DNA of 64,000 bases from an uncultured delta proteobacterium (GCA_963841435.1 CAWJCS010000002.1:320001-384000), one strand, 5' to 3'; shown: positions 20,673-43,502, counted from the stretch's first letter. The notes: generated by a model not told the origin, from the sequence alone. Numbers and translations are program-made.

Positions 20673-21449
20673 ATGACGAGCCGAGCCGTGAACGCCGCTC
20701 GGACGACTGTCGTCGCGTTGCTCGTGTCGGGCTGCTCGCCCGGCGTGGCGCCGCCCGCCCGGACGGAGCCGCGGACGCCACCACCGGCCGCCGCTGCTGC
20801 TCCCGCCCCTCTGGTCGCGACGGAACCCGAGGGCGACTCGGGCGTGCTCGCCCGGGAGCCGCATGCCGCCGATTCGTCCGATACCCCCGAAGTGCGCCTG
20901 GCTCGCTACCGCGCGCTCTGGACTTCGGAACGCTACCACCCCGCCGCGCTGGAAACGTCTCCGAGGCCCGCGTCGCTCCCAGCCGGCCCCTACGCTTGCC
21001 GCGTCTCGCAGGAATACCGGCTTCGCGACTGCACGGTCGAGAAGGACACCGAGGGCCGCACTTGGCTCGCGTTCGCCGGAGGCAACCTGCTCGGGATGCG
21101 CGGGGTCGTGTGGGACGCGCCCGGCGGGCTCGCGTTCGAGGGTTTTCTCACCGACGAGGAGCCATTCGGGTGCACGAGCTGTCAGGACCGCTGCATCGTC
21201 AACCCGGGCAGTTGCGCCTGCGATCCTCTGCCGCCGGAGGGCGTCGTCGAATGTCTCAAGCAGCCCCTGAAGATGACCCTGAAACGCAACGGGACGGGGC
21301 GCTACCGCGGGACGCTCGTCTACAAGGTCTACTTCAACGAGTACGTCGGCGAGGGGGCCGACCGCCACGTGGAGGGGTTCGTTCCCAAGGAGGAGCGGCT
21401 GATCGTGGACTTGGTTCGGGGAGCGCCGCCAGAGGATCCGAATCGGTAG
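20673..21449 (+). CDS. Hypothetical lipoprotein with Pro/Ala linker and Cys-containing domain
   Basis: MTSRAVNAARTTVVALLVSGC lipobox; fused to the GH8 in the ORF track only because of the frameshift; CTSCQDRCIVNPGSCAC cluster. Confidence 0.7.
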   Translation: MTSRAVNAARTTVVALLVSGCSPGVAPPARTEPRTPPPAAAAAPAPLVATEPEGDSGVLAREPHAADSSDTPEVRLARYRALWTSERYHPAALETSPRPASLPAGPYACRVSQEYRLRDCTVEKDTEGRTWLAFAGGNLLGMRGVVWDAPGGLAFEGFLTDEEPFGCTSCQDRCIVNPGSCACDPLPPEGVVECLKQPLKMTLKRNGTGRYRGTLVYKVYFNEYVGEGADRHVEGFVPKEERLIVDLVRGAPPEDPNR

Positions 21450-26236: not shown

Positions 26237-27220
26237 CTAGCCGGGGACGCTGCGTGCGATCCCCGAGTGTCTGCCCGGTGGCAGGAGCGCGAGCAGGGCC
26301 GGGACGATCTGCGCGACCGGTTTGCCGCTCGTGTCGAACGCTGCATGGGCCAGCTGATAGAGCGCCTGGCGGGCCTCCAAGGTGCGTGCGATGTTCTCGA
26401 GCGCTTCGCCGCGAAGCTGCGCGTTCGCAATGCGAGCGTCGTGCTGCAGCAGCACCCGCTCGAACATCACGCGTGGCTTCGCCTTGAGCCAGATCGTGAA
26501 GAACGACGTGAGCAAGACTTCGTAGGTGGCAGGCTCCGCGACGACACCGCCCCCGGTCGCGAGCACCACGTTCGGGTACTCGGCGATGATGCGTTCCAAG
26601 CAGCTGCGCTCGAGCACGCGATAGCCGTGCTGCCCGTAGAGCGTAAAGATTTCGCTGATCGCGAGCTTGGCTTCCTTTTCGATCTCGCGATTGAGCTCCA
26701 CGAACGGAACGCCGAGCCGCTCCGCCAAGAGCGGGCCCAGAGTCGATTTCCCGACGCCGCGAATTCCGATCAAGGCGATGCGCTGGGCTTCGCGGTCGCC
26801 TTCGAACAGCCGCTCTCGAATCCGGGCCAGGCGCTCGGGCGTCTGGCGCTTGAGGAATTCGACGATCATCGTGAGCTCGGGATTGGACGACTCCTCGGCC
26901 GTGACGAAGCTCTCGATGGGCAAATGCAGCGCGATGGCGAGGCGCTGGAGCAGCGCCAGCGAAATGTTGCCCGTCCCCGCCTCCACGCGTCCGAGATAGG
27001 CGAGGGAGATGCCCGACTGCTCCGCCAGCGCCTTGCGCGTCATGAAGCGTTGCGCGCGAGCGCGCCTCAGCCGCTGTGCGAGCAACTCGTGGAGCTCCCT
27101 CTCGCTCGCTCGTGCAGCGAGGTTCTTGCGCGCGGGGGAAGCCAACTCGGCCGCATTCGCTTCGGGGCTCCGGGCCCGGACGCGCGGATTCTTCGGCTCC
27201 TTTTTGGTCGTTCGTTTCAT
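26237..27220 (-). CDS. boxR: BzdR/BoxR-type regulator (XRE HTH plus shikimate-kinase-like domain)
   Basis: MTRKALAEQSGISLAYLGRVEAGTGNISL HTH followed by RIALIGIRGVGKSTLG P-loop, FVELNREIE, ATGGG and TIWLKA. Confidence 0.9.
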   Translation of the reverse strand: MKRTTKKEPKNPRVRARSPEANAAELASPARKNLAARASERELHELLAQRLRRARAQRFMTRKALAEQSGISLAYLGRVEAGTGNISLALLQRLAIALHLPIESFVTAEESSNPELTMIVEFLKRQTPERLARIRERLFEGDREAQRIALIGIRGVGKSTLGPLLAERLGVPFVELNREIEKEAKLAISEIFTLYGQHGYRVLERSCLERIIAEYPNVVLATGGGVVAEPATYEVLLTSFFTIWLKAKPRVMFERVLLQHDARIANAQLRGEALENIARTLEARQALYQLAHAAFDTSGKPVAQIVPALLALLPPGRHSGIARSVPG

Positions 27221-27276
27221 CGAGACGTTTCATCCACGAGCTGCGACCCGAATGGCGCCGCCCCGGCGCGCGCGCG

Positions 27277-28533
27277 TCAGGCCGCACGCTCCAGCAAGAT
27301 GGCGATGCCTTGCCCGCCACCCGCGCACGCCGAACAAATCCCGTATTTCCCGCCGGAGCGCTGCAATTCGCGTGCGACGGTGGTCGTCAGTCGAACCCCC
27401 GAAGCCGCCAGGGGGTGCCCGATGGCGATCGCACCACCGTGTACGTTGACCCGCTCGCGTTCGAGCTCGAGCTCTTTCTCGACGGCGAGGTATTGCGCGC
27501 CGAATGCCTCGTTGATCTCGTAGCGATCGACTTGCTCTCGCTTCAGATGAGTGGCTGCGAGGAGCGCGCGGATCGCGGGCACGGGCCCGATGCCCATGAC
27601 CTCGGGCGGCACGCCGACGCTCGCGCCCGCGACGATTCGCGCGAGAGGCGTGAGCCCGTGCTCTCTCACGTAGGCGCCCGATGCAACGAGCGCGGCGGCA
27701 GCGCCATCGACGATGGCCGAGCTGTTGCCCGCGGTTTGCACGCCGTCCTTGCCGAAGGCCGCTCGTAGCGTCTGCAAGACCTCGAACGAGCTCGGCTTCA
27801 CGTGCTCGTCCCGGTCGAAACGCGCGAGCTTGCGCGGGAGCTTGACGCCGCGCGGCTGGTACTCGCCGACGCTCCAGGTCTGGTCCGTGACCGGCGCCAC
27901 TTCTCCCGCCAAAAACCCGCCCTCCCAGCCCTGCAACGCCCGCGAGAAGCTTTGTTCTGCGAAGCGGTCAACCTCGGAGCGGCGGATGCCGTAGTGCCGC
28001 GCCAAGTTCTCTGCCGTCTCGCCCATGCGCGTGTTGGACGAAGTATCGAGCGTGGCCTCCCAGAGGAAGTCCTTGAACTCGACCTGGCCCATCTTGAAAC
28101 CGGTGCGATGCGAGTACGCGGCGACTGGGTTTCTCGACATCGACTCGGTGCCCACGCACAGCGCAAGGCGCGTCTTCCCGAGCTTGATCTGGTCGGCCGC
28201 CGTGAGGATGGTTTCGAATCCCGTTCCGCACAGGCGGTGCACCAAGACCGCCGGCACGCCCAGCGGCACGCCCGCGTAGAGCCCGATCTGGCGCGGCAGG
28301 TAGAAGGCGTCGAAGCTCGACTGCGCGACGTTGCCGGCAACCACGCTGCCAACGTCCGCGGCGGGTACGCCCGAGCGCTCGAACAAGGCGCGCGCCACGT
28401 GGATGCCGAGGTCGGTCGCCGAAACGCCAGAGAGCGCGCTCCCGTAGTCGGCAAACGGGGTGCGGACGCCGCCGAGGAGCCAGATGTCGTCGTAGTGACC
28501 GATGAGGGCGTGTTTTTCGGAGGATTCGAACAT
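27277..28533 (-). CDS. Thiolase (acetyl-CoA C-acyltransferase)
   Basis: RTPF, RLCGTG (Cys), GTESMS, TAGNSSAIVDGA, EINEAF, GGAIAIGHPLAASG, CAGGGQG. Confidence 0.95.
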   Translation of the reverse strand: MFESSEKHALIGHYDDIWLLGGVRTPFADYGSALSGVSATDLGIHVARALFERSGVPAADVGSVVAGNVAQSSFDAFYLPRQIGLYAGVPLGVPAVLVHRLCGTGFETILTAADQIKLGKTRLALCVGTESMSRNPVAAYSHRTGFKMGQVEFKDFLWEATLDTSSNTRMGETAENLARHYGIRRSEVDRFAEQSFSRALQGWEGGFLAGEVAPVTDQTWSVGEYQPRGVKLPRKLARFDRDEHVKPSSFEVLQTLRAAFGKDGVQTAGNSSAIVDGAAAALVASGAYVREHGLTPLARIVAGASVGVPPEVMGIGPVPAIRALLAATHLKREQVDRYEINEAFGAQYLAVEKELELERERVNVHGGAIAIGHPLAASGVRLTTTVARELQRSGGKYGICSACAGGGQGIAILLERAA

Positions 28534-28569
28534 GGCTGAGCTCGGGTCGCCGGCGCGGCCCCCTTCCGT

Positions 28570-30453
28570 TCAAAAGCTGCTGCGTTGTTCCCTTGCTTTC
28601 GTCGCGCGGGGGAGCGTGATGACCGACGCGTCGAGCGGTGTTTCGTAGAGCCGCTCGACGAGCGTCGCGCGCCGCGTGAGGACGGCGCGCTGATTGACGT
28701 AGCCCTTGTCGGTGAGCTCTCCGGTGTCGATCGACAGCGGCTCGGTCAAGACGAGCGCGCGAGTGGCGTAGGTTGACGACCCCCCGCCCGACTCGGCGAG
28801 GGCCTGAAGGCCACGCACCACGCGATGCCGCACGCTCGGGTGTTCAAGCACGTCGGCTGGCGCCGCGTCGTCTGGCAAGGAGCTCAGTCTGCGACAAGCG
28901 TCGAGTTGGGGAACGACCAAAAGCCCGACTTGGTCGCGCCCGTGTCCCGCGACGACCACGTCCTGGGCGACGGGGGCGAGTGCGGCAATCGCCTTCAGGC
29001 GAAGGACGCCCACGTGCACCCACGTGGCGGTGCTGAGCTTGAAATTCTCGCCGAGCCGGCCGTCGAAAAGGAGTCCCAGCTCCGGGTGCTCCGGATCGAC
29101 GAACTCGACGGCGTCGCCGGTCCTGAAGAAGCCCTCGTCGTCGAAAGCGCTCGCGGTGAGGTCGGGCCGCTTCCAATAACCGGGCGTGACGTTGGGACCG
29201 CGCACGCGGGCCTCGAGCTTGTCGCCGGTCGGAACGAGCTTGAGCTCTGAGCCAGGCATCGGTAGGCCAACGACGCCGGTTCGCCGTGCCTGGTAGTGGC
29301 AGCTCGTGGCCGCGGGTGCGGTCTCCGTGAGCCCCCAAGACGAGACCAGCGGCACGGGTCGCCCGAGCGTGTTGACCGAAAGCGCATTCAGCGAATCCCA
29401 GAGGTGCTGCGGCAACGCCGCCGCAGCGTAGAAGATCAGGCGCAGGCGACTGAAGAACCGCAGAGAGAGCGCGCGATCGCCGCGCAGCGCCGCTACCAGC
29501 AAATCGTAGGCGCGAGGCACGTTGAACACGACGGTCGGAGGGACGTCACGCAGGTTGGCGAGCGTCTCGTCGAAACCACCGGGCACGGGACGACCGCGAT
29601 CGATGTAGAGGGTCCCGCCGTTCCACAGGGTGAGGTTGAAGTTGTGGTTCCCACCGAACGTGTGGTGCCAGGGCAGCCAATCCACCAGCACCGGCGGCTC
29701 CTCGAGGAACGGCCAGAGCTGCAAGATGGCCTGCTGGTTCGAGCACAGCATCCGCTGGGTGTTGATCACCGCCTTGGGTTCGTCCGTCGAACCGGACGTG
29801 AACATGAATTTCGCGACGGTGTCCGGCGACACGGCCGCGAAGGCACGTTCGACGGCCGTGGAAGGGCGCCGCGTCGCGAGCTCTTCGAACGATACCGCCC
29901 CGCCGGCCGGCTCTCGAGCGCTCCCCACGACGATCGTGGCATCGTGCAGGTGTCGCACGGCGGCCAGGGCCGGCCCAAAGCGGGCCGGGTCGGCGACATA
30001 GATGACGCCTGGACGCAAGGTCTCGACGACCTGCAAGAGCTTGGCGAAATCCGCCGACAGCAGGGAGTACGCCGGTGAGATCGACGCGACCGGGATCCCG
30101 ACGTGGAGGCAAGCAAGCATCAGAGCGCCGTGCTCGACACTGTTTTCCGAGAGCACCATCACGGGGCGCTCCGCCGACAGGTCCTGCTCCAAGAGCCAAG
30201 CGCCGATGCCGTGCACCTGCTCGAGCGCCTCCCGGTAGGTGACGCCGCGCCAGGCGCCCGAAGGGCCGCGCTCCATGAGAAAGCGACGAGCCGGCGCCTC
30301 GCGCGCCCAGCGCTCGAGGTGCTCCCCGACCGAGCGCCCGTACTCGTTCAGCACATGGCGGGAGCGAAACAACACCGCGCCGTCCGGGCGCCGCATCGTC
30401 TCGACGGCGGGCGCCGCAAATAGGGGCGCCGGTTCGTCTTCAGCAGGGGTCAT
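28570..30453 (-). CDS. fcs: Feruloyl-CoA synthetase-like acyl-CoA ligase
   Basis: N-terminus RRPDGAVLFRS; ISPAYSLLSADF, KFMFTSGST, DWLPWHHTFGGNHNF, WGLTETAP, GPNVTPGYW, FDGRLGENFKL, GELTDKG. Confidence 0.9.
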   Translation of the reverse strand: MTPAEDEPAPLFAAPAVETMRRPDGAVLFRSRHVLNEYGRSVGEHLERWAREAPARRFLMERGPSGAWRGVTYREALEQVHGIGAWLLEQDLSAERPVMVLSENSVEHGALMLACLHVGIPVASISPAYSLLSADFAKLLQVVETLRPGVIYVADPARFGPALAAVRHLHDATIVVGSAREPAGGAVSFEELATRRPSTAVERAFAAVSPDTVAKFMFTSGSTDEPKAVINTQRMLCSNQQAILQLWPFLEEPPVLVDWLPWHHTFGGNHNFNLTLWNGGTLYIDRGRPVPGGFDETLANLRDVPPTVVFNVPRAYDLLVAALRGDRALSLRFFSRLRLIFYAAAALPQHLWDSLNALSVNTLGRPVPLVSSWGLTETAPAATSCHYQARRTGVVGLPMPGSELKLVPTGDKLEARVRGPNVTPGYWKRPDLTASAFDDEGFFRTGDAVEFVDPEHPELGLLFDGRLGENFKLSTATWVHVGVLRLKAIAALAPVAQDVVVAGHGRDQVGLLVVPQLDACRRLSSLPDDAAPADVLEHPSVRHRVVRGLQALAESGGGSSTYATRALVLTEPLSIDTGELTDKGYVNQRAVLTRRATLVERLYETPLDASVITLPRATKAREQRSSF

Positions 30454-30490
30454 CGGGAGCGGGCTCCTTTATGGGGCGCCCTCACGGTAT

Positions 30491-30635
30491 CTACTATAGA
30501 AGCTTTTTGCGGTCTAGGGGCCGGGTCGGGCGACGAGCGGTGCAGCTGCGTCGTGGGCCAGCCGAAAAGGCTGTTGTCGGCCATAGGAAGGCGAAAGTTT
30601 GGTATGGAAGCCGACATTGGAAGCTATTATAGTAG
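30491..30635. promoter_or_regulatory. Inverted pair of 15-mers AAGCT(TC/AT)TATAGTAG, one facing each divergent operon
   Basis: CTACTATAGAAGCTT at 30491-30505 and AAGCTATTATAGTAG at 30621-30635 match 13/15 after reverse complement; each contains a TATAGT -10-like hexamer. Confidence 0.65.
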
Positions 30636-30728
30636 TCTTCGTGGCGTCTGGCGGATGGTTCCTGCCGTAGCTGCATCGAGCGGCTCGAGTGCCCGCGTGC
30701 CGAGCCATACCCAGCCAGGGAGCTGAAC

Positions 30729-31952
30729 ATGAAGTTGACCCGTTTCTTCCTCATCGGAGCCGCCTTTGCTCTCTTGACGCTCGCGTGCCGAAAGGAATCG
30801 AAGTCCGACGCGAACGGAGCCCCGAGCGCGAGCGCCGCCGCCGCAGAGGAAACGATTCAGGTGGGACTCATCGCCTCGCTGACCGGTAAGTTCTCGGCGC
30901 TCGGCAGCGAGGACAAGAAGGCCGTCGAGCTTGCCATCGAACAGATCAATGAAAAGGGGGGTCTGCTCGGTAGGAAGATCACACTCACCACGCGCGACGA
31001 TCAGACGCTGCCCGACAAGTCCGTTCTCGCCTACAATGATCTCAAGTCGGCGAACGTCGTCGCGGTCATCGGCTCGGCGTTCTCGAACTCGGCCCTCGCG
31101 ACGCTCCCCTTCGCCGAGCGTGACGGGATCCCGTACCTTTCGCTGACGCCGGCCGAGGAACAGGTCGAGCCCATCAGGCCGTACGTGTTCGTGATCCCGG
31201 CGCTCTCGACCGCATTCGCGGAACGCTACCTCGAGTACATGCAGGCGCAGAAGATCACGAAGCTCGCCGTCGCTCACGACACCAAGGGCGCCTACGCGGT
31301 CTCGGGTTACAATGCGACGAGATCGCTGGCCCCCAAGTATGGCGTCGAGATCGTGAGAGACGAGGTCTTCGAGATGGCGACCAGCGATTTCAGCCCGCTC
31401 TTCACGCACGTCAAAGGTTCGGGAGCCCAGGCGCTGCTCTTCTGGGGCACGGGCCCGGCGGGCGTCACCGTCACCAAGCAGTACGCCGCGGCGAACGTGA
31501 AGGTCCCACTCTTCATGACGCCGTCGCAGGCGAGCAAGCTCTGGCTCGAGCCCGTGGGCTCGGCCGGTGAAGGCGTCACCGTGTTGAGCGCCATCGGTGT
31601 CGTCGGCGACGCCCTGCCCGATGGGCCTCAGAAGCAGATCATCGACCAGATGGCCGTGCCATTTTCGAAGCGATTCGGCTATCCGCCTCCCCAGTTCGCG
31701 CAGGACGGATACAGCGCGTGCCTGCTCTTGTTCGAGGCCATCAAGAAGGCCAAAAGCACGAAGCGCGATGAGATCCGAGCGGCGCTGGAGCAGATGACGC
31801 TTCTGACGCCGAACGGCAAGTACCGATACTCGCCGACCGACCATTCGGGGCTCACCCGCGAGTTCCTCTCGGTCAACGTGGTGACGAGCGGCAAGTTCGT
31901 TCCCACCCCGTGGGCCAAGGAGCAGCTCGTGCGCACCGTCAGCTCCGAGTGA
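30729..31952 (+). CDS. ABC transporter substrate-binding lipoprotein, Liv/HAAT family (probably aromatic acids)
   Basis: TLAC lipobox; IQVGLIASLTG, EQINEKGGLLGRKI, RDD, YRYSPTDHSGL; substrate inferred from context. Confidence 0.9.
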   Translation: MKLTRFFLIGAAFALLTLACRKESKSDANGAPSASAAAAEETIQVGLIASLTGKFSALGSEDKKAVELAIEQINEKGGLLGRKITLTTRDDQTLPDKSVLAYNDLKSANVVAVIGSAFSNSALATLPFAERDGIPYLSLTPAEEQVEPIRPYVFVIPALSTAFAERYLEYMQAQKITKLAVAHDTKGAYAVSGYNATRSLAPKYGVEIVRDEVFEMATSDFSPLFTHVKGSGAQALLFWGTGPAGVTVTKQYAAANVKVPLFMTPSQASKLWLEPVGSAGEGVTVLSAIGVVGDALPDGPQKQIIDQMAVPFSKRFGYPPPQFAQDGYSACLLLFEAIKKAKSTKRDEIRAALEQMTLLTPNGKYRYSPTDHSGLTREFLSVNVVTSGKFVPTPWAKEQLVRTVSSE

Positions 31953-31958
31953 ATCGGT

Positions 31959-32720
31959 ATGCTGCGCGTCCAAGGGCTCAGTCGCCGATTCGGTGGAGTC
32001 TATGCCCTTCGGGACGTGAATCTCGAGGTGCAGCCGGGCGAGCTACGCGGGATCATCGGCCCGAACGGCGCGGGCAAATCGACCCTTTTTCATTTGATCG
32101 CGGGCCACCTGCGCGCAAATGGCGGGGGAATCGCGTTTCGGGGCACGGCCATCGAGCGGCTGAGCCCGCACGAGCGAGCGAAGCTAGGCATTGCTATCGT
32201 CTACCAGGGCGCGCGCATTTTTCGCGGCATGAGCGTCCAAGAAAACGTGATGGTTGGCGCGCACCTGACGGCACGGCACGGTTTCTTGGAAGCCGCGTGG
32301 CAGTCGCCCCGCGCTCGCCGTGAAGAAGCGTCGATGCGCGTGCTCGCCAAAACCCTGCTCGACGAGGTGGGGCTCGCGGGGCTCGCCGATCGCCCCGCCG
32401 AATCCCTTCCGCTCGGGCAGCAGCGGGCCTTGCAGCTCGCGCGCGCGCTGGCGGCCGACCCGGCGCTACTCCTTTTGGACGAGCCGGCATCGGGGCTGCG
32501 CGAGCAGGAACGGAGCCGTCTCGCCGAGCTGATCCAGCGGCTTCGGGCGCGCGGGCTGACGATCCTGCTCGTGGAGCACGACGTGCGGCTCGTGACGAAC
32601 CTTTCGGATCGCGTCACGGTTTTGGACCTTGGTCGCGTGATCGCCGAAGGGACGCCCGCTACGATTCGCGAGGACCCGGCCGTCATCAGCGCCTACCTCG
32701 GCTCGGCCGCCACGGCATGA
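31959..32720 (+). CDS. livG: ABC ATP-binding subunit, LivG-like
   Basis: GPNGAGKST, LPLGQQR, LLLLDEPASG, LLVEHD, VISAYLG. Confidence 0.92.
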   Translation: MLRVQGLSRRFGGVYALRDVNLEVQPGELRGIIGPNGAGKSTLFHLIAGHLRANGGGIAFRGTAIERLSPHERAKLGIAIVYQGARIFRGMSVQENVMVGAHLTARHGFLEAAWQSPRARREEASMRVLAKTLLDEVGLAGLADRPAESLPLGQQRALQLARALAADPALLLLDEPASGLREQERSRLAELIQRLRARGLTILLVEHDVRLVTNLSDRVTVLDLGRVIAEGTPATIREDPAVISAYLGSAATA

Positions 32721-33388
32721 ACGTGATCGAAGTCGAACGGCTCTCCGTACGCTACGGAGCAGCAGTGGCGCTCGACGGCGTGTCCCTCAGCGTGGCTGCG
32801 GGCGAAATGGTCGCCCTGGTCGGTAGCAATGGAGCGGGAAAGACCACGCTGCTCGACGCGCTCTCGGGTGTCGTCAAGAAGGACAGTGGCGAGATTCGGA
32901 TCCAGGGGCGTCTCGCCCACGTGCCCGAAGGCCGGCAGCTCTTTTGTGATCTCACGGTTGACGACAACCTTCGACTCGGGGCATTCCGCTCCGGTGATCG
33001 CGATCCGGCCTGGGTCTACCGCCTGATGCCCGCGCTCGAGCGCACCAAGAGACAACAGGCGGGTAACCTCTCGGGCGGCCAACAGCAAATGGTGGCGATC
33101 GCGCGTGGGCTGATGTCGCGCCCCGACGTGCTGTCGCTCGACGAGATGTCGCTCGGGCTGGCGCCGGTCATCGTGCAGGATCTAGCGCGCGTGCTTCTCG
33201 ACCTGAATGCCGAGCGTGGCCTGGCCGTGCTCCTCGTCGAGCAAAGCGTGCGGCTGGCGTTCTCGCTCTGCACGCGAGGGTACGTGTTGGAAACGGGCAA
33301 GGTCGTCGCCAGCGGGACGACCCGAGAGCTCGAGCAGAGTCCTTTCGTCGAGAGCGCTTATCTCGGTGCGCGGGGAGGAGCACCGTGA
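32717..33388 (+). CDS. livF: ABC ATP-binding subunit, LivF-like
   Basis: GSNGAGKTT, HVPEGRQLF, LSGGQQQM, LDEMSLGLAP, LLVEQ; ATGA overlap with livG. Confidence 0.92.
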   Translation: MNVIEVERLSVRYGAAVALDGVSLSVAAGEMVALVGSNGAGKTTLLDALSGVVKKDSGEIRIQGRLAHVPEGRQLFCDLTVDDNLRLGAFRSGDRDPAWVYRLMPALERTKRQQAGNLSGGQQQMVAIARGLMSRPDVLSLDEMSLGLAPVIVQDLARVLLDLNAERGLAVLLVEQSVRLAFSLCTRGYVLETGKVVASGTTRELEQSPFVESAYLGARGGAP

Positions 33389-34242
33389 GCGACTTCTTCT
33401 CCTACCTCGTGCACGGCATCGCGGTCGGCTGCGGCTTTGCGCTGCTCGCGAGCGGGCTCATCATCATCTACCGCGTGACGCGCGTCGTGAACCTCGCGCA
33501 GGGCACCTTCTGTGTCGTCGCTGCGTTCACGGCAGCCACGCTGCTCGGCTCCGGGCTTCCCCACGGCGTGGCCGAGATCCTCGCGATCGCCGCCGCCGCG
33601 GCGTTCGGATTCTCGACGGGAGTCGTGGCCATCACCAGGCGGGGAACGAGCCCCGAGGCGTCGCTCATCGTCACGCTGGGTATTGGCATCCTCGGCTACG
33701 CGTTCGAAATCCTGCTTTGGGGTGACCAGCCCCGCTCCTTTCCCGGCGTCGCCGGTTCGCTCGAGGTCTTCGGTCACGAATTCCCCCGCCAGTACGCGGT
33801 CGTCATCGTGGTGACGCTGGCGGTGTTTGCGCTGCTCGAGGGGTTCTTCGAGCGCACCTATTGGGGCAAGGCCCTGACCGCTTGTGCGTCGAACCCGTAC
33901 GCCGCGAGGCTCGTCGGCATTCGCATCGTCCGCATGGGCCTCGTCGCCTTCACGCTCGGTGGCGCGCTCGGCGGCGTGGCAGGCGTGCTGCTCACGCCGC
34001 TCAGCCCGATGTCGTACGACAGCGACCTGATACTGTTCGTCAACGGCTTTGCGTCGGCGATCCTCGCGGGACTGAGGCGGCCCGTGCTCGCGCTCGCGGG
34101 CGGCCTCGTCCTCGGCGTCGCGGAGGCGCTGGTGGCCGGCTACGCCAAGGCGTCGTACCAGAGCGCGCTCGCGCTGCTTCTCACGCTGGCCATTCTGGTC
34201 GTGCAGGGCGCGCGTCGCCCCGCCCTGGAGGAGCGCGAATGA
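33385..34242 (+). CDS. livH: ABC permease, LivH-like
   Basis: GLIIIYRVTRVVNLAQG, GKALTACASNPYAARLVGI. Confidence 0.92.
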   Translation: MSDFFSYLVHGIAVGCGFALLASGLIIIYRVTRVVNLAQGTFCVVAAFTAATLLGSGLPHGVAEILAIAAAAAFGFSTGVVAITRRGTSPEASLIVTLGIGILGYAFEILLWGDQPRSFPGVAGSLEVFGHEFPRQYAVVIVVTLAVFALLEGFFERTYWGKALTACASNPYAARLVGIRIVRMGLVAFTLGGALGGVAGVLLTPLSPMSYDSDLILFVNGFASAILAGLRRPVLALAGGLVLGVAEALVAGYAKASYQSALALLLTLAILVVQGARRPALEERE

Positions 34243-35210
34243 TGCGAAACCGGCCATATACGCTGGTTCTCTTGCTCGCGTGCACCCTGGCCCTGCCCGC
34301 CGTGCTCGACGACAGTCAGCTTTCGATCTACGTGCTCTGCGCGCTGACGGCGATCGTGACCATCGGTGTCTCCCTACTGATGGGGCAGGCGGGGCAGGTT
34401 TCACTCGGGCAGGGGGCGTTTTACGCTGCGGGGGCGTACACGGCGGGGGTGCTCGCCACTCACGACTGTCCGACGCTCCTCGCCCTGGCGGTCGCACCCG
34501 TGGCGGCCGCCATCCTCGCGGCTTTGGTCGGCGTGCCCCTGCTCATGCTCCGCGGGCATCATCTGGCGTTCGGCACCTTGGCGACGCACCTCATCTGTTT
34601 GTCGGTTGTCGGCGAAATGTCGGTTACGGGCGGTGACGTGGGGCTTCAAGGAATTCCTCGGCTCGGCGTCGGCCCCGTCGCCTTCGATTCCGTCCGGAGC
34701 TATGCCTATCTGAGCGCATTCGGTCTTCTTGGCGTCGCGCTCGTCGCGCGCAACATCCTGGCATCGCGTCCGGGGCGCGCGCTCAGAGCGCTCTCGAGCA
34801 GCGAGTTGGCCGCGGCGTCGTCCGGGATCCCCGTCGGCCCCTACAAGCTGGCCGTTTTTGCGCTCTCGGCCGCTTTCGCGGGCCTCGCCGGAGGCATCTA
34901 CGCTTTTTATATGGGCTATCTCGCCCCGGGCTCTTTTCCGGTTCTCTTGTCCGTGGAGTACGTCGTGATGGCGACGATCGGCGGGCTCGGGACGATTGAG
35001 GGCGGCGTCGTCGGCAGCGTGGTCGTGCTCTTGCTGGTTCACGGGCTCAGCAGGTTGGCGACGACGAGCGGCATGCCGGACACCGCGCCGGTGATCCTTT
35101 CTTACGCCGTGTACGCACTGCTCCTGATCATGGCGGTGTTGTTCCTGCCGGGCGGTGTCGTGTCGATTCCCGCTGCCTTGCGGCGACGGTTCACGGCACC
35201 CAAGACGTGA
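34239..35210 (+). CDS. livM: ABC permease, LivM-like
   Basis: ATGA overlap at 34239; GQAGQVSLGQGAF, SRPGRALRAL, YKLAVFALSA, IGGLGT. Confidence 0.92.
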   Translation: MMRNRPYTLVLLLACTLALPAVLDDSQLSIYVLCALTAIVTIGVSLLMGQAGQVSLGQGAFYAAGAYTAGVLATHDCPTLLALAVAPVAAAILAALVGVPLLMLRGHHLAFGTLATHLICLSVVGEMSVTGGDVGLQGIPRLGVGPVAFDSVRSYAYLSAFGLLGVALVARNILASRPGRALRALSSSELAAASSGIPVGPYKLAVFALSAAFAGLAGGIYAFYMGYLAPGSFPVLLSVEYVVMATIGGLGTIEGGVVGSVVVLLLVHGLSRLATTSGMPDTAPVILSYAVYALLLIMAVLFLPGGVVSIPAALRRRFTAPKT

Positions 35211-35284
35211 TCAGCGCGCTCGCAGCGCGCGGAGCCAGGCCCCGGCCTGCTCTCGGCCGCGCACGGTGCGTGGCCGAGGCAACG

Positions 35285-36727
35285 TCACGGAGGTTCCGGC
35301 GCGGGTTCGGTCGGCGCGGCAGGTTCTGCCGGCGTGGCCTCGGCCGGTTCTTCGGCGGGTGCCGAGGGCCGAGGCGCTTCTGCCGCCGGAGTCGCGGTCG
35401 CGTTGGGTTCGGGGGCCGCCGCGGGCGCTTCGGGTGACGGCTTTTCCCCGCCGAATCCCAACGTTACGTCGAAGAGGTACATGATGCCGATGCCGAACGC
35501 GTGCGTCGTCGATCCGGGTGCGATCGGAACCACGGGCGGGAAGAGCGCGTACGTGCCAGAGCGGCCGTTGCGCATCTCGTAGTACGAGGCGTAGAGATCG
35601 ACGGTCTTCACCGGGCTGAACGTGTACCCGACCGACCACTCTAGCCCGTTCAACCCGTTCGTCGTGCAGGGCAGCTTGCCCACCCGGGTGCAGCGGCCAC
35701 GGTCGGCGACGCCGAACGAGCCCCACACCGCATGGTTGCCGAGGTGCTGCTGAAGCGCCCCGTAGATCGCGTCGCGCTGGTAGCCGTCCACCGCCCCGAC
35801 CACCGTGTCCTTCGTCCGATACGTCAAGCGCTCGACGATGGCCGCCAGCCGGGTGCGGGTGGGAAATTCGTACCAGGCCAGGAACTCATGGGCATCGTCG
35901 GTCGAGCTCCGATTCGTGAGAGTGGCGCCGGGTGAGCCGCCGACCCAATTGGCGCCGAAGTAGTCCATGTGCCGCTCGTACGCGTAGTGGAGGCTGAGCG
36001 ACCCGATTTCGAAGTTCAAGAGCCCCGATAATAGGACGGGGCTAATCGAAGCCTCGATCTCCGTGGTCCTCGTGCGGCCCTCGTTCACCGAGACAGCAAG
36101 CCGAGCGGACAGCCCAACGAGGGTGGGAGTCCAGTATTGAATGCTGTTGCCCTGCCGCCGGTTGAACGCCGCGTCCGATCGGGACGTGGCGTGCCCATTT
36201 TGGGTCGTCGTGCCCGGTATGTTGAAGCCCGGGTTGCCCGTCAGCGTGTTGTCGAACGGGTTCAGGCCGCGGAGCGCACCGAGGAACAGCGTCGGGTGCT
36301 TGTACGGCGTGTCCCAATTGCCGAAAAACAGCGTGCCGTAGTCACCCTTCACTCCCACCCCGCTGTTGCGCGATGCCCACGGGGCCGTGAGCACTGGATG
36401 ATCGCCATCGGGGTTCACGGCGTTCTCGACCTGGAAGAACGCCTGGATGTGTCCGCCGAGCTCGATCTCACCCCGAAAGCCGATGTTGGACGTGCCCGAG
36501 GTGATACGAAACCTGTTGGGCAGGTTTTCGCCGGTGTAGTCGTCCACCGTCACCTGGCTCGCGCCGCCGGTTTGGGGAGAGAGGCCCTCGGGCGTGGCTC
36601 CGCTCGTGCGAAAGTTGTCCAGGAAGGGCTGCAGGGTGCCGTAGAGGCTCACCTGGCCCTCCTGTGCGGATGCCGGCAGGGAGACGGCGAGCCCCCCCAG
36701 GGTGAGAAGCGTTGCGATGCATTTCAT
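35285..36727 (-). CDS. Gram-negative porin (Porin_4-like) with a C-terminal Pro/Ala/Glu-rich tail
   Basis: Signal peptide; VSLYG, SNIGFRG, AFFQVE, RNSGVGVKGDYGTLFFGNWDTPYK, NSIQYWTP, GYTFS, DLYASY, GIGIMYLF. Confidence 0.88.
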   Translation of the reverse strand: MKCIATLLTLGGLAVSLPASAQEGQVSLYGTLQPFLDNFRTSGATPEGLSPQTGGASQVTVDDYTGENLPNRFRITSGTSNIGFRGEIELGGHIQAFFQVENAVNPDGDHPVLTAPWASRNSGVGVKGDYGTLFFGNWDTPYKHPTLFLGALRGLNPFDNTLTGNPGFNIPGTTTQNGHATSRSDAAFNRRQGNSIQYWTPTLVGLSARLAVSVNEGRTRTTEIEASISPVLLSGLLNFEIGSLSLHYAYERHMDYFGANWVGGSPGATLTNRSSTDDAHEFLAWYEFPTRTRLAAIVERLTYRTKDTVVGAVDGYQRDAIYGALQQHLGNHAVWGSFGVADRGRCTRVGKLPCTTNGLNGLEWSVGYTFSPVKTVDLYASYYEMRNGRSGTYALFPPVVPIAPGSTTHAFGIGIMYLFDVTLGFGGEKPSPEAPAAAPEPNATATPAAEAPRPSAPAEEPAEATPAEPAAPTEPAPEPP

Positions 36728-36933
36728 GGTGTTGTCCTCAAACGCGCGCCCCCCTTGCTGAGGCGCGCCTGCGACTAAGCCAGGAGTCGGCGAGCCGCCA
36801 GCAAGATCCGCTGGTGGCCCGACACTGGGCCTCGGTGCGCCAGCGCTGAGATCGAGTGCCGTAAACCACTACCGAGCTTCGTAATGGGTCGTGGGTCGTG
36901 GGGGCGGTGAAGCGCGGGCGGCGATTCGAGCGG

Positions 36934-38082
36934 CTACTGGGCGACGCAGTTGGCCTTCATGACATCCCAGATCGCGTCGCCAGTGGCCTTGGACCCCGCC
37001 GTGGTGGGGTGAATGCCGTCGGAGGTGTACTCGTTGTGCCCGTTCCAGGTGTCACGCAGATCGAGCCAGTAGCACTTCGGGCTGGTGAGCCCGTCGCACA
37101 GCGCCTTCATCTGGGGCCGCAAGCTGTCCAGACAAGATTTCAGCGATGCGAAGCTGGCGCCGATCGGGTCCGGATAGAAGAAGTAGACGATCTTCTCCGT
37201 GCCGTGTTGCGCCATGTTTTGGAACAGCGAGGTGGCAGCGGTGAGTGCGGCCGCGCCATTGTTGTTGATGAGGCAGTCGTTGCCGCCGCCGTCCATGAGC
37301 ACGTACTTGATGGTGCCGGAGCTCTGAACCGCCTTGTCGTATTGACTCGGGATCTGGTTGTTGGCGAGCGTCGTGCCACTGACCGAGTTGTTGACGTAGC
37401 GGTCGCTCTGAGGCAGAGAGCCTGCCGCTTTTGCCTGAGTCTCGATCTCTTGCGTTATCTGATGACTCGCCGCGATGAACGACTCGCCAATCACGGCGAC
37501 ATCCTTTCCGGCGGTCTGTCCTTTCACGCACGCGCCCGAACCGGCCGAGCCTCCGCTTCCACCGGCGGCGCCCGCCGCACCAGACGCACCTGACATTCCA
37601 GCGGCTCCGCTTCCGCCACCGGCGCCCGCGCCGCCTTGGCCGCCGAACATGCCAGCCATTCCGGCCATGCCGCCTGTGGGTCCGGTTCCACCGGCGTCCG
37701 CACCGCCGTCCCCAGCGCCACCGACGCCACCGGTGGCGCCCGCCGCGCCGCCCACGCTCCCGCCAGAGCCGGCCACTCCGCCGGTGCCACCCGTCAGCGA
37801 ACCGCCCGTGCCGGCGCTCGAGCCTGCCGCGCCGCCGGTACCGCCCGTGACGGTGCCGCCCGTGCCGCTCACGGCTCCGGCGCCGCCGGTGCCGCCCGTG
37901 ACAGCGCCTGCGCTGCCGCCGGTACCGGCCGAACCACCGCTGAGCCCGGTGCCGCCGGTGGTGCCCGCACCGCCAGTCGCTTCGACGCCAGTGCTACCTC
38001 CGTCGCCCAAGCATGCGCCAAGGCTGAGGCTCAAGACGCCTACCTGTAGGCAGCCGATGAATGTCAGTCCTGTCGATCGCAT
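36934..38082 (-). CDS. SGNH/GDSL esterase lipoprotein with Gly-rich linker
   Basis: AGGAGG RBS before ATG 38082; LGAC lipobox; block I IGES, block II SVSG, block III GGGND, block V DGIHP. Confidence 0.9.
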   Translation of the reverse strand: MRSTGLTFIGCLQVGVLSLSLGACLGDGGSTGVEATGGAGTTGGTGLSGGSAGTGGSAGAVTGGTGGAGAVSGTGGTVTGGTGGAAGSSAGTGGSLTGGTGGVAGSGGSVGGAAGATGGVGGAGDGGADAGGTGPTGGMAGMAGMFGGQGGAGAGGGSGAAGMSGASGAAGAAGGSGGSAGSGACVKGQTAGKDVAVIGESFIAASHQITQEIETQAKAAGSLPQSDRYVNNSVSGTTLANNQIPSQYDKAVQSSGTIKYVLMDGGGNDCLINNNGAAALTAATSLFQNMAQHGTEKIVYFFYPDPIGASFASLKSCLDSLRPQMKALCDGLTSPKCYWLDLRDTWNGHNEYTSDGIHPTTAGSKATGDAIWDVMKANCVAQ

Positions 38083-38153
38083 GTTGCCTCCTGAACGCGA
38101 GAGCCAAGCCAAGTTCGTCTTCGTGCTTGAAAACCCTGCGGCACCACCTGATG

Positions 38154-38170
38154 TATCAGGTTACCTGATA
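38154..38170. promoter_or_regulatory. Palindromic operator TATCAGG-TTA-CCTGATA upstream of the SGNH esterase
   Basis: Perfect 7+7 inverted repeat with the same core as 40380-40396. Confidence 0.8.
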
Positions 38171-38407
38171 ACCATTGCCTCATGCAGGGCGAGCTGACAA
38201 GGGCCTTTCTAGGGCGTTGACGAAACTGCGCGGCTTTCCTGAAGAAGCAACGACCGTGGTCGCCGCTGACGCCAAAAAATGCTGACCGTGGAAGATCGAT
38301 GAGCCCTGGTGCCCGCCGCGTCGTCCCCCCAAGTCCAGCGTGGGGACGAGCCGGGCGTGGGTCGAAGCGTGAGGCGATCTGGAACATCGTCGGGTCGATC
38401 GGAGAAG

Positions 38408-38878
38408 CTAGGCGGGTGCCGCGGATTTTCGGCGAGGCACCATGATCACGTGCGCGGCCTCGAGCACGACCTCGTCGCGCTGGTTGTAGACGACGGTGCC
38501 AAACTTCACGATGCCGCGGTCCGCCTGCGAGCGAGAGGGTCGGGCCTCGGTGACGGTGCCCTCGATGCGCAGGGAGTCGCCGGGGTGAACCGGCCGCAGC
38601 CATCGCATTGACTCGATCTCGACGCCCGCACCTTGACCGGACAGTCCGAGATCGCTGTCCACGATGAGCCGCATGGCCACCGCGGCCGTGTGCCAACCAC
38701 TCGCGACCAATCCGCCCAACAGCGTTCCACGCGCGGCGCCTTCGTCCAGGTGAGGCGGCTGCGGGTCGAACTCGGCGGCGAAGGATTTGATGCGTTCTTG
38801 GGTGATGGTGATGGCGCCTGGCGACCTGAAGCGCAGGCCTACGCTGAAGTCGTCGAAGAATCGGCCAGGTGATGGCAT
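38408..38878 (-). CDS. MaoC-family (hot-dog fold) dehydratase
   Basis: Start MPSPGRFFDD; FAAEFDPQPPHLD, GLVASGWHT, RPVHPGD. Confidence 0.9.
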   Translation of the reverse strand: MPSPGRFFDDFSVGLRFRSPGAITITQERIKSFAAEFDPQPPHLDEGAARGTLLGGLVASGWHTAAVAMRLIVDSDLGLSGQGAGVEIESMRWLRPVHPGDSLRIEGTVTEARPSRSQADRGIVKFGTVVYNQRDEVVLEAAHVIMVPRRKSAAPA

Positions 38879-38893
38879 GGTCTCGGGGTAACG

Positions 38894-38910
38894 TATCAGG
38901 ATGCGTGATG
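38894..38910. promoter_or_regulatory. Degenerate operator TATCAGG-ATG-CGTGATG, 15 bp upstream of the MaoC start
   Basis: 12/14 match to the palindrome. Confidence 0.65.
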
Positions 38911-38961
38911 ACGAGCGCTCGCGCAACGAGCGGTTCGCTCCGCCCCCGACCGGTCGTCGCT

Positions 38962-39868
38962 CTAGAGCTCGAGCTTGGGGAGCCGAATGCCGGACGGCTG
39001 AAGGTGCTGAGCGAAGCGCGCCTGCCAAACCGCTGCGATTGCAGCCGGATCCCACCCGCCGCCACGGAGCTCGGTCACGAGCTCTGCCGGGTGCGAGTAC
39101 AGACACAGCCGGTCGCCACCGATCCCGATCGCCTGCCCCGTGATCCCGGCGGACGCGTTCGATGCGAGGAACACCACGAGGCCGGCGCAGTCTTCCGGCA
39201 TGCCGATGGCGTGCTCACGCCGCACGGCGGCCGGCAGGGGCTCGCCCGCTGCGACGCGCGGCACGAGCGGCTTGTACAGGGGGATGGTCGCGGTCATCGC
39301 CGTCCACGCGGTCGGCACGATGGCATTCACGGTGATTTCCGCGCGCGCGAGCTCGAGCGCCCAGGTGCGCGCGAACGCAACGATGCCGGCCTTCGCGGCC
39401 GCGTAGCTCGTCTGGCCGAAGTTCCCGAACTGGCCCGCCGGGGAGCCCACGACGATGATGCGACCGCCCTCGGCCTGCTCGCGCATCCGGATGGCCGCTG
39501 CTCGCGCGCACAGAAATGTTCCGCGCAGGTGCGTGCGCACGACCAGATCGAAATCTTCGTCGGTCATCTTCCACAGCACGGCGTCGCGCAGCACGCCGGC
39601 GTTGGTGACGACGGCGTCGAGAACGTCCGAACGAGTCGACGGCGCACGCGATCAGCGCGTCCGCCGCCGCGCGATCCCCGACGTCTCCGCCCACGGCGAC
39701 GGAGCGCTCGCCGGCGAGCGCTCGGGTCTCCTCCGCGGCACCCGAATTTAGGTCGTTGACGACCACGGAGGCTCCGGCCCGCGCGAGCGCGACCGCGTAC
39801 GCGCGCCCGAGGCCCTGGCCCGCACCCGTGACGACCACTACCTTGCCCTCGAGATCGCTCGGGCTCAC
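38962..39868 (-). CDS. SDR, 3-hydroxyacyl-CoA dehydrogenase-like; +1 frameshift at about 39622
   Basis: GTG 39868 overlaps the upstream stop; TGAGQGLG, VVVND. Removing one base restores FGR-LDAVVTNAGVLRD, then GNFGQTSYAAAKAG and TVNAIVP. Confidence 0.88.
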
Positions 39869-40359
39869 CGGTAGTACCTGAGCAAACACTCGGCGACGAG
39901 CGCAGGCTTGGGAAGGTCCCTGACCTCGATCGTGAACACCAAAGCGACCTGCACGCCCCCAGCGATTTGGGTCGCGTCGAGGACCTCACCATGGCCGCGG
40001 AAGTCAGCGCCGACCGGCAACGCTGCGGGAAAGCGGACCTTGTTCAGGCCGTAGTTGATCGAGGTCGCTGCGTCCTCGACCACGACGAGCTCTTGCGAAA
40101 TGGGCCCGAGCATCGAGAGGGTCAAAAACCCGTGTGCAATGGTGCCGCGGAACGGCGTGTGGCGCGCGCGCTCGGGGTCGACGTGGATGAAGTTGTGGTC
40201 GTTGGTCAGGGCGGCGAATTCGTTGACGCGATCCTGCGTCATCCGCTGCCATTCCGTGGGCCCGAGCTTCCGCCCGCTGTGGCGCGGCAGCTCAGCGATC
40301 GTGGTGACCAAGGGGCCGATTGTCGTGCTCGAAGGGCTTTCCGCCGTGTTGGTACGCAT
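39865..40359 (-). CDS. MaoC/NodN-like (R)-enoyl-CoA hydratase
   Basis: AAGGAGG RBS before ATG 40359; FAALTNDHNFIHVDPE, TIAHGFLTLS, NYGLNKVRFP. Confidence 0.92.
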   Translation of the reverse strand: MRTNTAESPSSTTIGPLVTTIAELPRHSGRKLGPTEWQRMTQDRVNEFAALTNDHNFIHVDPERARHTPFRGTIAHGFLTLSMLGPISQELVVVEDAATSINYGLNKVRFPAALPVGADFRGHGEVLDATQIAGGVQVALVFTIEVRDLPKPALVAECLLRYYR

Positions 40360-40375
40360 GTGCCTCCTTGGCACC

Positions 40376-40400
40376 CTAGTATCAGGTTCCCTGATACTAG
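40376..40400. promoter_or_regulatory. Extended palindromic operator CTAGTATCAGG-TTC-CCTGATACTAG
   Basis: Perfect 11+11 inverted repeat 16 bp upstream of the MaoC-SDR operon start. Confidence 0.88.
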
Positions 40401-40500
40401 CGCATTGTCGCAGGAACGGAAGGCCCCCCGTGCGGGCCGATCGGCTCCGCCGGTCGGCGCCCGTCCCGAAAGGGGAGGAGAACCGCGGCTAGCCTTCCAT

Positions 40501-41037
40501 TTAGGCGGCGCGCCGTGACTGGGCGCGTTTGGGCGCGGGCGTCCGGGCTTCCTGGCCGGCCGCGGGCTGGGCGGCGTCGTGAAAGCCACCGCCGAGGTTG
40601 CGAACGGCGGACTTGATCATCGCCAGGAACTTCGACCGTTCGGGCCGACTGAACCCCCGCAACATCCGCGTCTCGAAGTCGGCGACGGCGGACTCGCAGG
40701 CGGCGACCACGCGCCGCCCCTTGGCCGTCAGGCTCGCGGGTCGCTTGCGGCGATGGTTGGGGTGCGCGTTGCGTTTGATCAGTCCGGCCCGCTCCAGGCG
40801 GTGGATGACCTCGTGCATCGACTGCGCCGTCATGAACGAACGCCGCGCCAGTTGCGAGCTGGACAAGGGCGCGCCATGGCGATTGAGGACACTCAACGTC
40901 GTGAACTGAAGTGCCGTCAGGTCGTGCCGCGCGGCGATTTCGCTGACCGAGCCGAGCACGAGCTGCTCTAGCCGGGCAATGGCGTAGGAGATCCCGGGCT
41001 CCGGGCTCGGGGGTGCCTTACCGTCGACCTTGTCCAT
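40501..41037 (-). CDS. MarR-family transcriptional regulator (start may extend to 41097)
   Basis: LTALQFTTLSVL, LSSSQLARRSFMTAQSM, LERAGLIKR, LTAKG. Confidence 0.92.
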   Translation of the reverse strand: MDKVDGKAPPSPEPGISYAIARLEQLVLGSVSEIAARHDLTALQFTTLSVLNRHGAPLSSSQLARRSFMTAQSMHEVIHRLERAGLIKRNAHPNHRRKRPASLTAKGRRVVAACESAVADFETRMLRGFSRPERSKFLAMIKSAVRNLGGGFHDAAQPAAGQEARTPAPKRAQSRRAA

Positions 41038-41147
41038 GTGGGCATCGTGCCATGGCGACCGCCGCCGTACGTGGAGGAAATCGATCCGCATCCCCATAGT
41101 GCTCGATCAGTGCTCGCAGTGCTCGATGGCGCCCCATGGGTCGAATA

Positions 41148-41656: not shown

Positions 41657-41902
41657 CCGTTCACGATATCATCCTCGCAGGGTGCGGGAAGCCGTTCGCG
41701 GATTCGGAGTAGTACCCTCGCGCCTCGACTCCAGGCGTGAGTTGATCGATTCGTTGGCGTTCGCGCGCCTGTAAGTTTTCATCGTTCCGCGAGACTAGGC
41801 CGCTCGGCCCATAGCGAATCACGACGACGCGGCGATACGCTCGCAGCCATGGCAGTTCAGCGCTCGCGTTGCTCTCGCTCCTTCATCATCGATCAGCCAT
41901 CG

Positions 41903-43301: not shown

Positions 43302-43502
43302 ACACTAGCCCGCGGGGTAGGGGTCTATTTGTGACCAGCGCCGCTCGACTGCCCGTGCGGAGCGCGGGTGCCGCGCGCGGGCTGATACGGAAACTCGAGG
43401 TTGCAAGCGTCGATGGTCGGGGTTTCGTCGCGGCCCGGCGCGCACCATTCGCCCGGCTTCGGGCAGGGTCGATCGGACCGCCCGCGCCGATGTAGAGTTC
43501 AA

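Follow-up and report, generated by a model that had tools for sequence, protein, structure and literature searches.

How does a bacterium shorten the side chain of plant hydroxycinnamates when the enzymes for the task appear to be divided between two gene units that resemble different known clusters? The question is raised by a 64,000-nucleotide stretch of DNA (the window, C2:320001-384000; unprefixed positions count from its first base) in the 7.78-Mb, six-contig genome of an uncultured soil myxobacterial lineage (GCA_963841435.1, completeness 95%). One unit encodes an Fcs-type coenzyme A (CoA) ligase, a thiolase and a BzdR/BoxR-family regulator, and is divergent from a Liv-type ATP-binding cassette (ABC) importer. 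The second runs in the order marR, maoC1, a short-chain dehydrogenase/reductase (SDR) gene and maoC2, then a GDSL-like esterase and a porin. We lean, with modest confidence, towards a locus for the uptake and CoA-dependent beta-oxidative side-chain shortening of plant hydroxycinnamates/phenylpropanoids, which would be built from complementary halves of two cluster types. Genes were called by Pfam and NCBIfam profile scans of open reading frames (ORFs) in the window, though not of every one. Comparisons drew on 36 other genomes of the same genus (G-numbers) and on fetched loci (L-numbers). G+C content across the window is 64-73%, and the nearest named relatives of the ligase gene belong to Myxococcota metagenome-assembled genomes (MAGs), at 67-68% identity.

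The first unit lies on the minus strand. Its ligase, an Fcs-type aryl-propenoate/propanoate CoA ligase of 627 amino acids (28570-30453), scores 779.1 bits against PRK12582 (cut-off 777). Homologues on plasmids, at 46-51% identity, carry the annotation 'feruloyl-CoA synthase', and a PDB search returned no close structure, the top matches being malonyl-CoA synthetases at 79 bits. The 3-ketoacyl-CoA thiolase (27277-28533) has Thiolase_N (192 bits) and Thiolase_C (149 bits) domains, reaches 389 bits against TIGR01930 and is at most 36% identical to the other thiolases of its genome. After an intergenic gap of 56 bp follows the regulator (26237-27220), which combines an HTH_3 domain (41.5 bits) with a shikimate-kinase-like SKI domain (111.5 bits) in Pfam and scores 319.5 bits (cut-off 204) against NCBIfam PRK08154, a model named 'anaerobic benzoate catabolism transcriptional regulator'. 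The importer, on the plus strand, consists of a periplasmic solute-binding protein (SBP; 30729-31952, Peripla_BP_6, 210 bits), two ABC_tran ATPases (31959-32720 and 32717-33388) and two BPD_transp_2 permeases (33385-34242 and 34239-35210). The binding protein lacks a close relative of solved structure whose known ligand is aromatic, and the names of its PDB relatives are uninformative.

Gene order places this unit among known phenylpropanoid clusters. Ligase relatives outside the phylum were found on 598 stretches, and neighbourhoods were compared for the best 80 loci. A thiolase 58-76% identical to that of the window adjoins the ligase in 8 of these, and a BzdR/BoxR-like gene lies within 10 kb in 15. 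Loci of Aromatoleum toluclasticum, Zoogloea and Denitromonas read LivG-LivF-(regulator or porin)-SBP-Fcs-crotonase-thiolase-SDR, then an acyl-CoA dehydrogenase or CoA-transferase. Enzymes of these Rhodocyclales clusters are 56-58% (Fcs; 58% for the A. toluclasticum ligase) and 64-67% (thiolase) identical to those of the window, and the order is that of the EbA5317 ligase, EbA5318 hydratase, EbA5319 thiolase and EbA5320 dehydrogenase of A. aromaticum EbN1. The ligase half therefore belongs to an established thiolase-terminated route. Judged from these sequence comparisons, the ligase, thiolase and importer are orthologous to the EbA5317-20 phenylpropanoid beta-oxidation cluster. EbA5317 is said to activate p- and o-hydroxylated phenylpropanoids, and EbA5318-5320, run in reverse, give p-coumaroyl-CoA from 4-hydroxybenzoyl-CoA (PMC5109826, PMC11123965). 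Thiolase-terminated hydroxycinnamate beta-oxidation, which the sequence-only reading of this DNA had proposed, is not new, being already on record in Aromatoleum (PMC5109826, PMC11123965), plants (PMC11370050) and Aspergillus niger (PMC8140964).

The window shares with the EbN1 cluster a PRK12582 ligase, a dedicated thiolase, a Liv-type importer and, as proposed, an aroyl-CoA product. It differs in being without the crotonase hydratase (no ECH_1 domain occurs in the window ORFs scanned) and without the classical SDR, the closest protein of the own genome to the SDR of the congeners' clusters being only 36% identical. Its regulator is BzdR/BoxR-like, whereas the EbN1 cluster is under the TetR-like repressor PprR (PMC9765128). 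The host also differs: its Myxococcota genome is of aerobic type, and the downstream route is that of PobA and LigAB in place of benzoyl-CoA pathways.

The ligase half is well kept within the genus. Ligase orthologues of 66-72% identity occur in 8 of the 36 other genomes (including the unpublished G033), and two more distant copies occur in other families of the order. Six of the eight loci were fetched; G002 and G033 were left out, their matches being on short contigs. In all six, thiolase-Fcs faces SBP-LivGFHM, the binding protein is 72-78% identical and always adjoins fcs, and the two ATPases and two permeases are kept. In 7 of the 8 genomes, Fcs has a BoxR-like gene (68-74% identity) no more than about 6 kb away; the G033 copy is on another contig.

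The enzymes missing from this half have candidate counterparts in the second unit, also on the minus strand. MaoC1 (39865-40359; MaoC_dehydratas, 76.9 bits) finds its best PDB match in the (R)-hydratase-type Rv0130 (129.5 bits) and is a predicted (R)-specific enoyl-CoA hydratase. The SDR (38962-39868) has the N and C parts of its adh_short domain in different frames. Aligned with the intact orthologue of the congener G005, to which its protein is 88% identical, the gene carries one extra base at about 39622-39623. That orthologue best matches 2et6, the (3R)-hydroxyacyl-CoA dehydrogenase of fungal MFE-2 (250 bits), and also matches HSD17B4. Three soil-metagenome sequencing runs contained no more than 0.20 of the words sampled, and no read or contig in them spanned the frameshift site, the nearest clean piece ending at 39612. 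The sequence-only reading had described this unit as marR, maoC-SDR and maoC. All of these genes are present, but the stop of maoC1 and the start of the SDR gene overlap (GTGA), so that they are distinct genes rather than a fusion, and the SDR gene has a frameshift. The MarR-family repressor (40501-41097, start possibly at 41037; MarR_2, 56.8 bits) heads the unit.

MaoC2 (38408-38878; MaoC_dehydratas, 62 bits) is a single-hotdog MaoC-family protein whose best PDB match is 3exz. It retains an Asp and a His of what we take to be the hydratase motif. Its gene occurs in none of the 36 other genomes of the genus, and it occupies the slot where related clusters hold an Amidohydro_2 gene. It was considered as the missing thioesterase, and its 4HBT match is marginal (21 bits). 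Between the two units, and absent from the sequence-only reading, lie the importer, an outer-membrane porin (35285-36727, minus strand; Porin_4, 90 bits) and a weak GDSL-like esterase candidate (36934-38112, minus strand; Lipase_GDSL at 21.7 bits, under the cut-off of 23.6). G005 keeps the order porin-GDSL-SDR, with a porin 70% identical and a GDSL-like gene 86.5% identical over 200 amino acids.

MaoC1 is rare among close relatives and abundant elsewhere. At E ≤ 1e-20 it is absent from all 36 other genomes of the genus; the G005 maoC1 is cut by a contig end, with its last 11 residues visible. Distant homologues (41-47% identity) in three other families of the order have no adjoining SDR or MarR. 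Homologues in metagenomes number in the thousands, the 120 best listed being 72-85% identical. Neighbourhoods were compared for 24 metagenome loci with a MaoC1 of at least 58% identity. Here the SDR follows MaoC1 wherever the contig permits, a MarR gene (66-82% identical) precedes maoC1 in 10 of the 24, and a 4CL-type ligase is divergent from marR in 6. Past the SDR, an Amidohydro_2 gene follows in 13 of the 15 loci that reach so far (the exceptions are L151 and L156).

Gene content of this kind recalls the cou cluster of Rhodococcus jostii and the phd cluster of Corynebacterium glutamicum, whose PhdE is of MaoC type. The likeness lies in a MarR with inverted-repeat boxes and, at the level of gene families, in a predicted hydratase and an SDR that is frameshifted in the window. 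The cou/phd set comprises ligase, hydratase, dehydrogenase, the amidohydrolase-superfamily CouO/PhdC and the MarR-type CouR (PMC4737184, PMC11370050). The metagenome relatives of the MaoC1-SDR module show a full set (ligase, MarR, MaoC, SDR and Amidohydro_2), whereas the window genome is without the 4CL-type ligase and has no ketohydrolase-type amidohydrolase at the cluster. By gene content, the MarR-MaoC1-SDR half thus appears to be a truncated cou/phd-like cluster. No NCBIfam model matches the metagenome amidohydrolases and their sole PDB relative is an uncharacterised protein, so they are candidate members of CouO/PhdC. The earlier proposal that proteobacterial and actinobacterial parts are joined here holds as a mosaic of two pathway types; 'actinobacterial-like' applies in gene content only.

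Two side observations concern these metagenome contigs. On L152, MaoC1 (81%), SDR (80%), Amidohydro_2, an SBP_bac_11 protein and a PobA-like gene stand in a row, and the SBP_bac_11-PobA pair recurs in the window's own genome at C5:136330-138309. A MetE-like gene (PRK06520, 425 bits) adjoins the cou/phd-like module in L136:10243-11379 and L157:1-915, and may encode an O-demethylase for methoxylated products.

Do the two halves belong together? Five congeners keep a crotonase-type hydratase/dehydrogenase at the cluster and have no MaoC1. In G025, G036, G007 and G016 a classical SDR (74-100% identical to the G025 copy) lies at the cluster beside the thiolase, together with a FadB-like crotonase-HADH gene. 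G028 has both at its cluster by Pfam, and the Myxococcales MAG of L036 shares both matches by tblastn. Both genes are absent from the window genome and from G005, which have just a housekeeping FadB at 32-35% identity. It is only in these two genomes that MaoC1 and an MFE-2-type SDR lie near the Fcs module, a few kb away, and the G005 SDR is intact. The MarR-MaoC1-SDR half has no 4CL-type ligase beside marR, and the own-genome protein nearest to the metagenome cluster ligases is encoded elsewhere and is just 29% identical. The metagenome clusters' Amidohydro_2 protein has no homologue (E ≤ 1e-5) in the own genome, and its gene is also absent from five congeners including G005. Because each half is without what the other supplies, the halves likely work together.

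Two independent units would be the strongest alternative, although we consider it unlikely. Here Fcs and thiolase would draw on housekeeping FadB-type enzymes, and MarR-MaoC1-SDR would be a decaying cou/phd-like remnant with its ligase and ketohydrolase gone and its SDR going. The SDR frameshift, the missing ligase and amidohydrolase of the ancestral type, the FadB-thiolase pair at C3:769-772 kb and the fact that the units are neighbours in two related genomes only would all fit such decay. Against them stands G005, in whose genome (87% complete) MaoC1 and an intact SDR persist and no amidohydrolase was found. Both genomes, moreover, have intact MarR boxes, which have extended to their esterase-porin genes and, in the window genome, also to a distant esterase. 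Finally, the two genomes with MaoC1-SDR are precisely those from which the cluster SDR and FadB-like genes are absent.

The joint reading, in which the two units form one pathway, has its own burdens, and several observations count against it. The SDR is frameshifted in the assembly; if the frameshift is real, the SDR step would be without a dedicated enzyme. The housekeeping FadB-thiolase pair on C3 could serve the Fcs unit instead. The ligase exceeds the PRK12582 cut-off by only 2 bits. Adjacency of the halves is confined to two related genomes, that of the window and G005, so that their co-occurrence counts as one or two events. The own genome yielded no thioesterase, ADP-forming acyl-CoA synthetase or CoA-transferase to free the aroyl group, and its three 4HBT-type genes, at C5:56997, C2:1062656 and C6:1113409, lie far from the cluster. 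In addition, the pairing of boxes with regulators, described next, is inferred for both regulators from position and conservation.

Regulation of the second unit may be read from a palindrome, GTATCAGG-N3-CCTGATAC, which has three matches in the window against 0.07 expected. A perfect copy (40379-40397) lies between marR and maoC1, a copy with one mismatch (38153-38171) lies directly upstream of the GDSL-porin genes, and a degenerate copy with three mismatches (38893-38911) lies upstream of maoC2. The only other site in the genome with at most one mismatch, a fourth box with one mismatch at C2:526868 (L120:7740-9140), precedes by about 30 bp the probable start of an esterase-like alpha/beta-hydrolase gene. 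Its product resembles extracellular polyhydroxyalkanoate-depolymerase/esterase domains (80 bits, under the cut-off). A similar esterase (66 bits) is encoded in the window at 41849-43165. The box also precedes maoC1 in the metagenome relatives and, in G005, the GDSL gene. Among solved proteins the repressor is related to HcaR (52.9 bits) and weakly to CouR, and CouR is released by p-coumaroyl-CoA (PMC4737184). We infer that MarR represses maoC1-SDR, maoC2 and the esterase-porin genes through these boxes. Its likely signal, judging from CouR and HcaR, is hydroxycinnamoyl-CoA.

The regulator of the first unit shares with BzdR/BoxR of Azoarcus/Aromatoleum the HTH_3 plus shikimate-kinase-like architecture and a PRK08154 score over the cut-off. 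A tree of 24 rows (22 distinct sequences) joins it to copies linked to Fcs in a Zoogloea MAG and an Alcaligenaceae MAG (support 100/99). Three proteobacterial genomes encode BoxR 2-3 kb from boxB; these copies fall outside this clade, as does a fourth canonical copy that is not box-adjacent, and identity to the box-adjacent copies is about 40-45%. As the regulator thus sits in a clade separate from the box-adjacent copies, the name BoxR is not warranted for it. The fcs-thiolase-boxR unit of the sequence-only reading therefore keeps its genes, which Pfam and NCBIfam confirm, and loses that name.

A palindromic box, TCTACTATAGAAGC, lies 37 bp upstream of fcs (30490-30503), and a second copy about 93 bp upstream of the binding-protein gene (30623-30636). 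Palindromes of this type have 13 matches within three mismatches in the genome, just two of them in the fcs-SBP intergenic region. The core, TACTATAGTA, is present twice upstream of fcs in all eight loci compared: the window, six of the same genus and one named Myxococcales MAG. It was not found in 12 proteobacterial and Gemmatimonadota Fcs loci, including two with a regulator of the same clade, and its assignment to the regulator consequently rests on the genus. Position and conservation make TACTATAGTA a putative operator of the BzdR/BoxR-like regulator, which would likely control fcs-thiolase and the importer through it, with an aryl-CoA as effector. The window genome is without boxB, and the TACTATAGTA palindrome is seen only in the host genus.

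Which enzyme ends the pathway was addressed by searching the whole genome for box, ech and couO homologues, as had been suggested for this locus. No boxB, no HCHL-type Ech and no CouO-like hydrolase was found. Five crotonase-type proteins match the HCHL model (NF006588), none of them in the window, and the best reaches 119.4 bits (cut-off 276). The window is, as had been stated, without a crotonase-type Ech. The same holds for a ketohydrolase of the amidohydrolase type: the five Amidohydro_2 genes of the genome are all elsewhere, two of them in the protocatechuate cluster. Vanillin dehydrogenase, likewise reported missing from the window, had no counterpart among the ORFs scanned, none of which has an aldehyde dehydrogenase domain, with the limit that not every ORF was scanned. 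With no boxB, HCHL-type Ech or amidohydrolase homologue, the thiolase is the only candidate for the last step.

Genes for the aromatic product are found near the Fcs module across the genus. Five loci have gentisate genes beside it, with the gentisate 1,2-dioxygenase of the G016 copy scoring 555 bits against TIGR02272, and in G005 PobA and protocatechuate 4,5-cleavage genes stand directly beside the importer. The window genome encodes PobA (TIGR02360, 650 bits), a LigB-type dioxygenase and LigK at C5:131-138 kb, and has one weak VanA_C-type match at C4:16917. An ADP-forming acyl-CoA synthetase is encoded in G025 and G007 next to the FadB-like gene, two genes from an SDR/di-iron pair. In G005, which has no gentisate genes, it comes directly after the BoxR-like gene (L021). 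This congener enzyme could release the aromatic acid with a gain of ATP. The pair itself joins an MFE-2-like SDR to a small di-iron protein resembling PaaA/PaaC (72-82 bits in the five copies). It is conserved beside the gentisate genes in L023, L024, L025, L029 and L030 (G007, G016, G028, G025 and G036), and may be an aroyl-CoA hydroxylase feeding gentisate.

These neighbours bear on a quite improbable alternative, in which the locus degrades fatty, dicarboxylic or alicyclic acids freed by esterases and the aromatic reading is an artefact of annotation names. It would suit a thiolase that reaches only the generic TIGR01930 model, a MaoC and MFE-2-type SDR that form a general (R)-specific beta-oxidation pair, and a binding protein whose solved relatives offer no close one with a known aromatic ligand. 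Against it, the Fcs module adjoins gentisate or PobA/protocatechuate genes in the genus, and the MaoC1-SDR-amidohydrolase module of L152 stands beside a PobA-like gene. Gene order and identities also match the Aromatoleum phenylpropanoid cluster, and the regulator belongs to a family that senses benzoyl-CoA.

Myxobacteria make benzoyl-primed polyketides, and a biosynthetic role, supplying benzoyl-CoA or hydroxybenzoyl-CoA as starter unit for a secondary metabolite, was also weighed. Plants do use thiolase-ended beta-oxidation from cinnamate to benzoyl-CoA (PMC11370050). We nevertheless regard such a role as very improbable, given that the genome has no aromatic ammonia-lyase, that the window ORFs scanned include no polyketide synthase or nonribosomal peptide synthetase gene, and that the cluster holds an importer, a porin and esterases amid xylan hydrolases.

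Taken as a catabolic pathway, the locus suggests the following sequence of events. GH30, GH39, GH8, GH5 and GH62 enzymes encoded nearby would degrade xylan, and the GDSL-like esterase, together with the distant MarR-box-linked alpha/beta-hydrolase, would free hydroxycinnamates from it. The porin and the Liv-type importer would bring the acids in, and the Fcs-type ligase would convert them to CoA thioesters. MaoC1 would hydrate these to the (3R)-hydroxy ester, which the MFE-2-type SDR would oxidize to the 3-oxo ester. The thiolase would then cleave the 3-oxo-3-arylpropionyl-CoA to acetyl-CoA and an aroyl-CoA such as 4-hydroxybenzoyl-CoA. A thioesterase would free the acid, whose degradation would then pass to PobA and to the protocatechuate 4,5-cleavage enzymes encoded on another contig.

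How the arrangement arose is more tentative. We think it possible, at somewhat under even chances, that this is a chimera by complementary loss, in which an EbN1-type cluster minus its hydratase and dehydrogenase and a cou/phd-type cluster minus its ligase and ketohydrolase have become mutually dependent in one Myxococcota lineage. The outcome would be a bacterial route of (R)-specific MaoC, MFE-2-type SDR and thiolase under the dual control of a cou-type MarR and a previously undescribed, phenylpropanoid-dedicated clade of the BzdR/BoxR type with its own palindromic operator. The locus appears to mix known routes, with no new chemistry.

Other thiolase-linked systems resemble it in part. In Pseudomonas the gene order is fcs-ech-vdh with a neighbouring thiolase, aat. 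The window shares with it an Fcs-family ligase and an adjoining thiolase; unlike Pseudomonas, it has no HCHL-type Ech in its genome and no vanillin dehydrogenase seen in the window. In A. niger, the hcsA-foxA-katA-theA-D genes encode a ligase, a hydratase/dehydrogenase and a thiolase leading to an aroyl-CoA, then a thioesterase (PMC8140964), and the peroxisomal CNL-CHD-KAT1 route of plants takes cinnamate to benzoyl-CoA and is likewise thiolase-terminated (PMC11370050), the thioesterase step being confined to the fungal route. The route proposed for the window has the same succession of ligase, hydratase/dehydrogenase and thiolase, and its SDR is nearest to the fungal MFE-2 dehydrogenase. In contrast to both, its hydratase and dehydrogenase are separate small bacterial proteins under MarR, and no peroxisome is involved.

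If the chimera works, the steps of hydroxycinnamate side-chain removal would be interchangeable natural modules: one type of ligase could replace another, hydration and oxidation could be (S)- or (R)-specific, and cleavage could be thiolytic or hydrolytic. Engineers already use such modularity: PhdE and PhdB, paired with the plant thiolase KAT1, yield benzoyl-CoA in Escherichia coli (PMC11370050). The BzdR/BoxR-like clade and the MarR, with their clear operator motifs, could serve as aryl-CoA biosensors. Mosaics of such pathway genes are common. On a Burkholderia plasmid, a homologue of the ligase lies amid ring-cleavage genes. The Terrarubrum flagellatum plasmid NZ_CP091854.1 (L217) carries another mosaic, with an amidohydrolase, a crotonase, a feruloyl-CoA synthase, an SBP, a MarR and Liv permeases in one cluster.

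The setting would place lignin-related aromatic catabolism within a xylan-degrading locus. Hemicellulases are abundant in the flanks of the window, where scans of window ORFs found five GH30-type genes as well as GH39, GH8, GH5 and GH62. This neighbourhood (3443-21449 and 43401-47261) also holds an AraC-type regulator with a periplasmic-binding-like domain. In the congener G007 (L028), a second Fcs paralogue adjoins GH10 and GH30 genes. Further along the window (49729-53184), a 1151-residue protein combines a reprolysin-like M12B metallopeptidase with a HYR domain, RTX repeats and a CBM2 cellulose-binding domain. Next to the BzdR/BoxR-like gene lies an HD-GYP-like and LuxR-type regulator (24779-26209). 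A 64%-identical paralogue lies at C6:852963-860998 of the same genome, with paralogues of the porin (33%) and the GDSL-like gene (27%) on its flanks.

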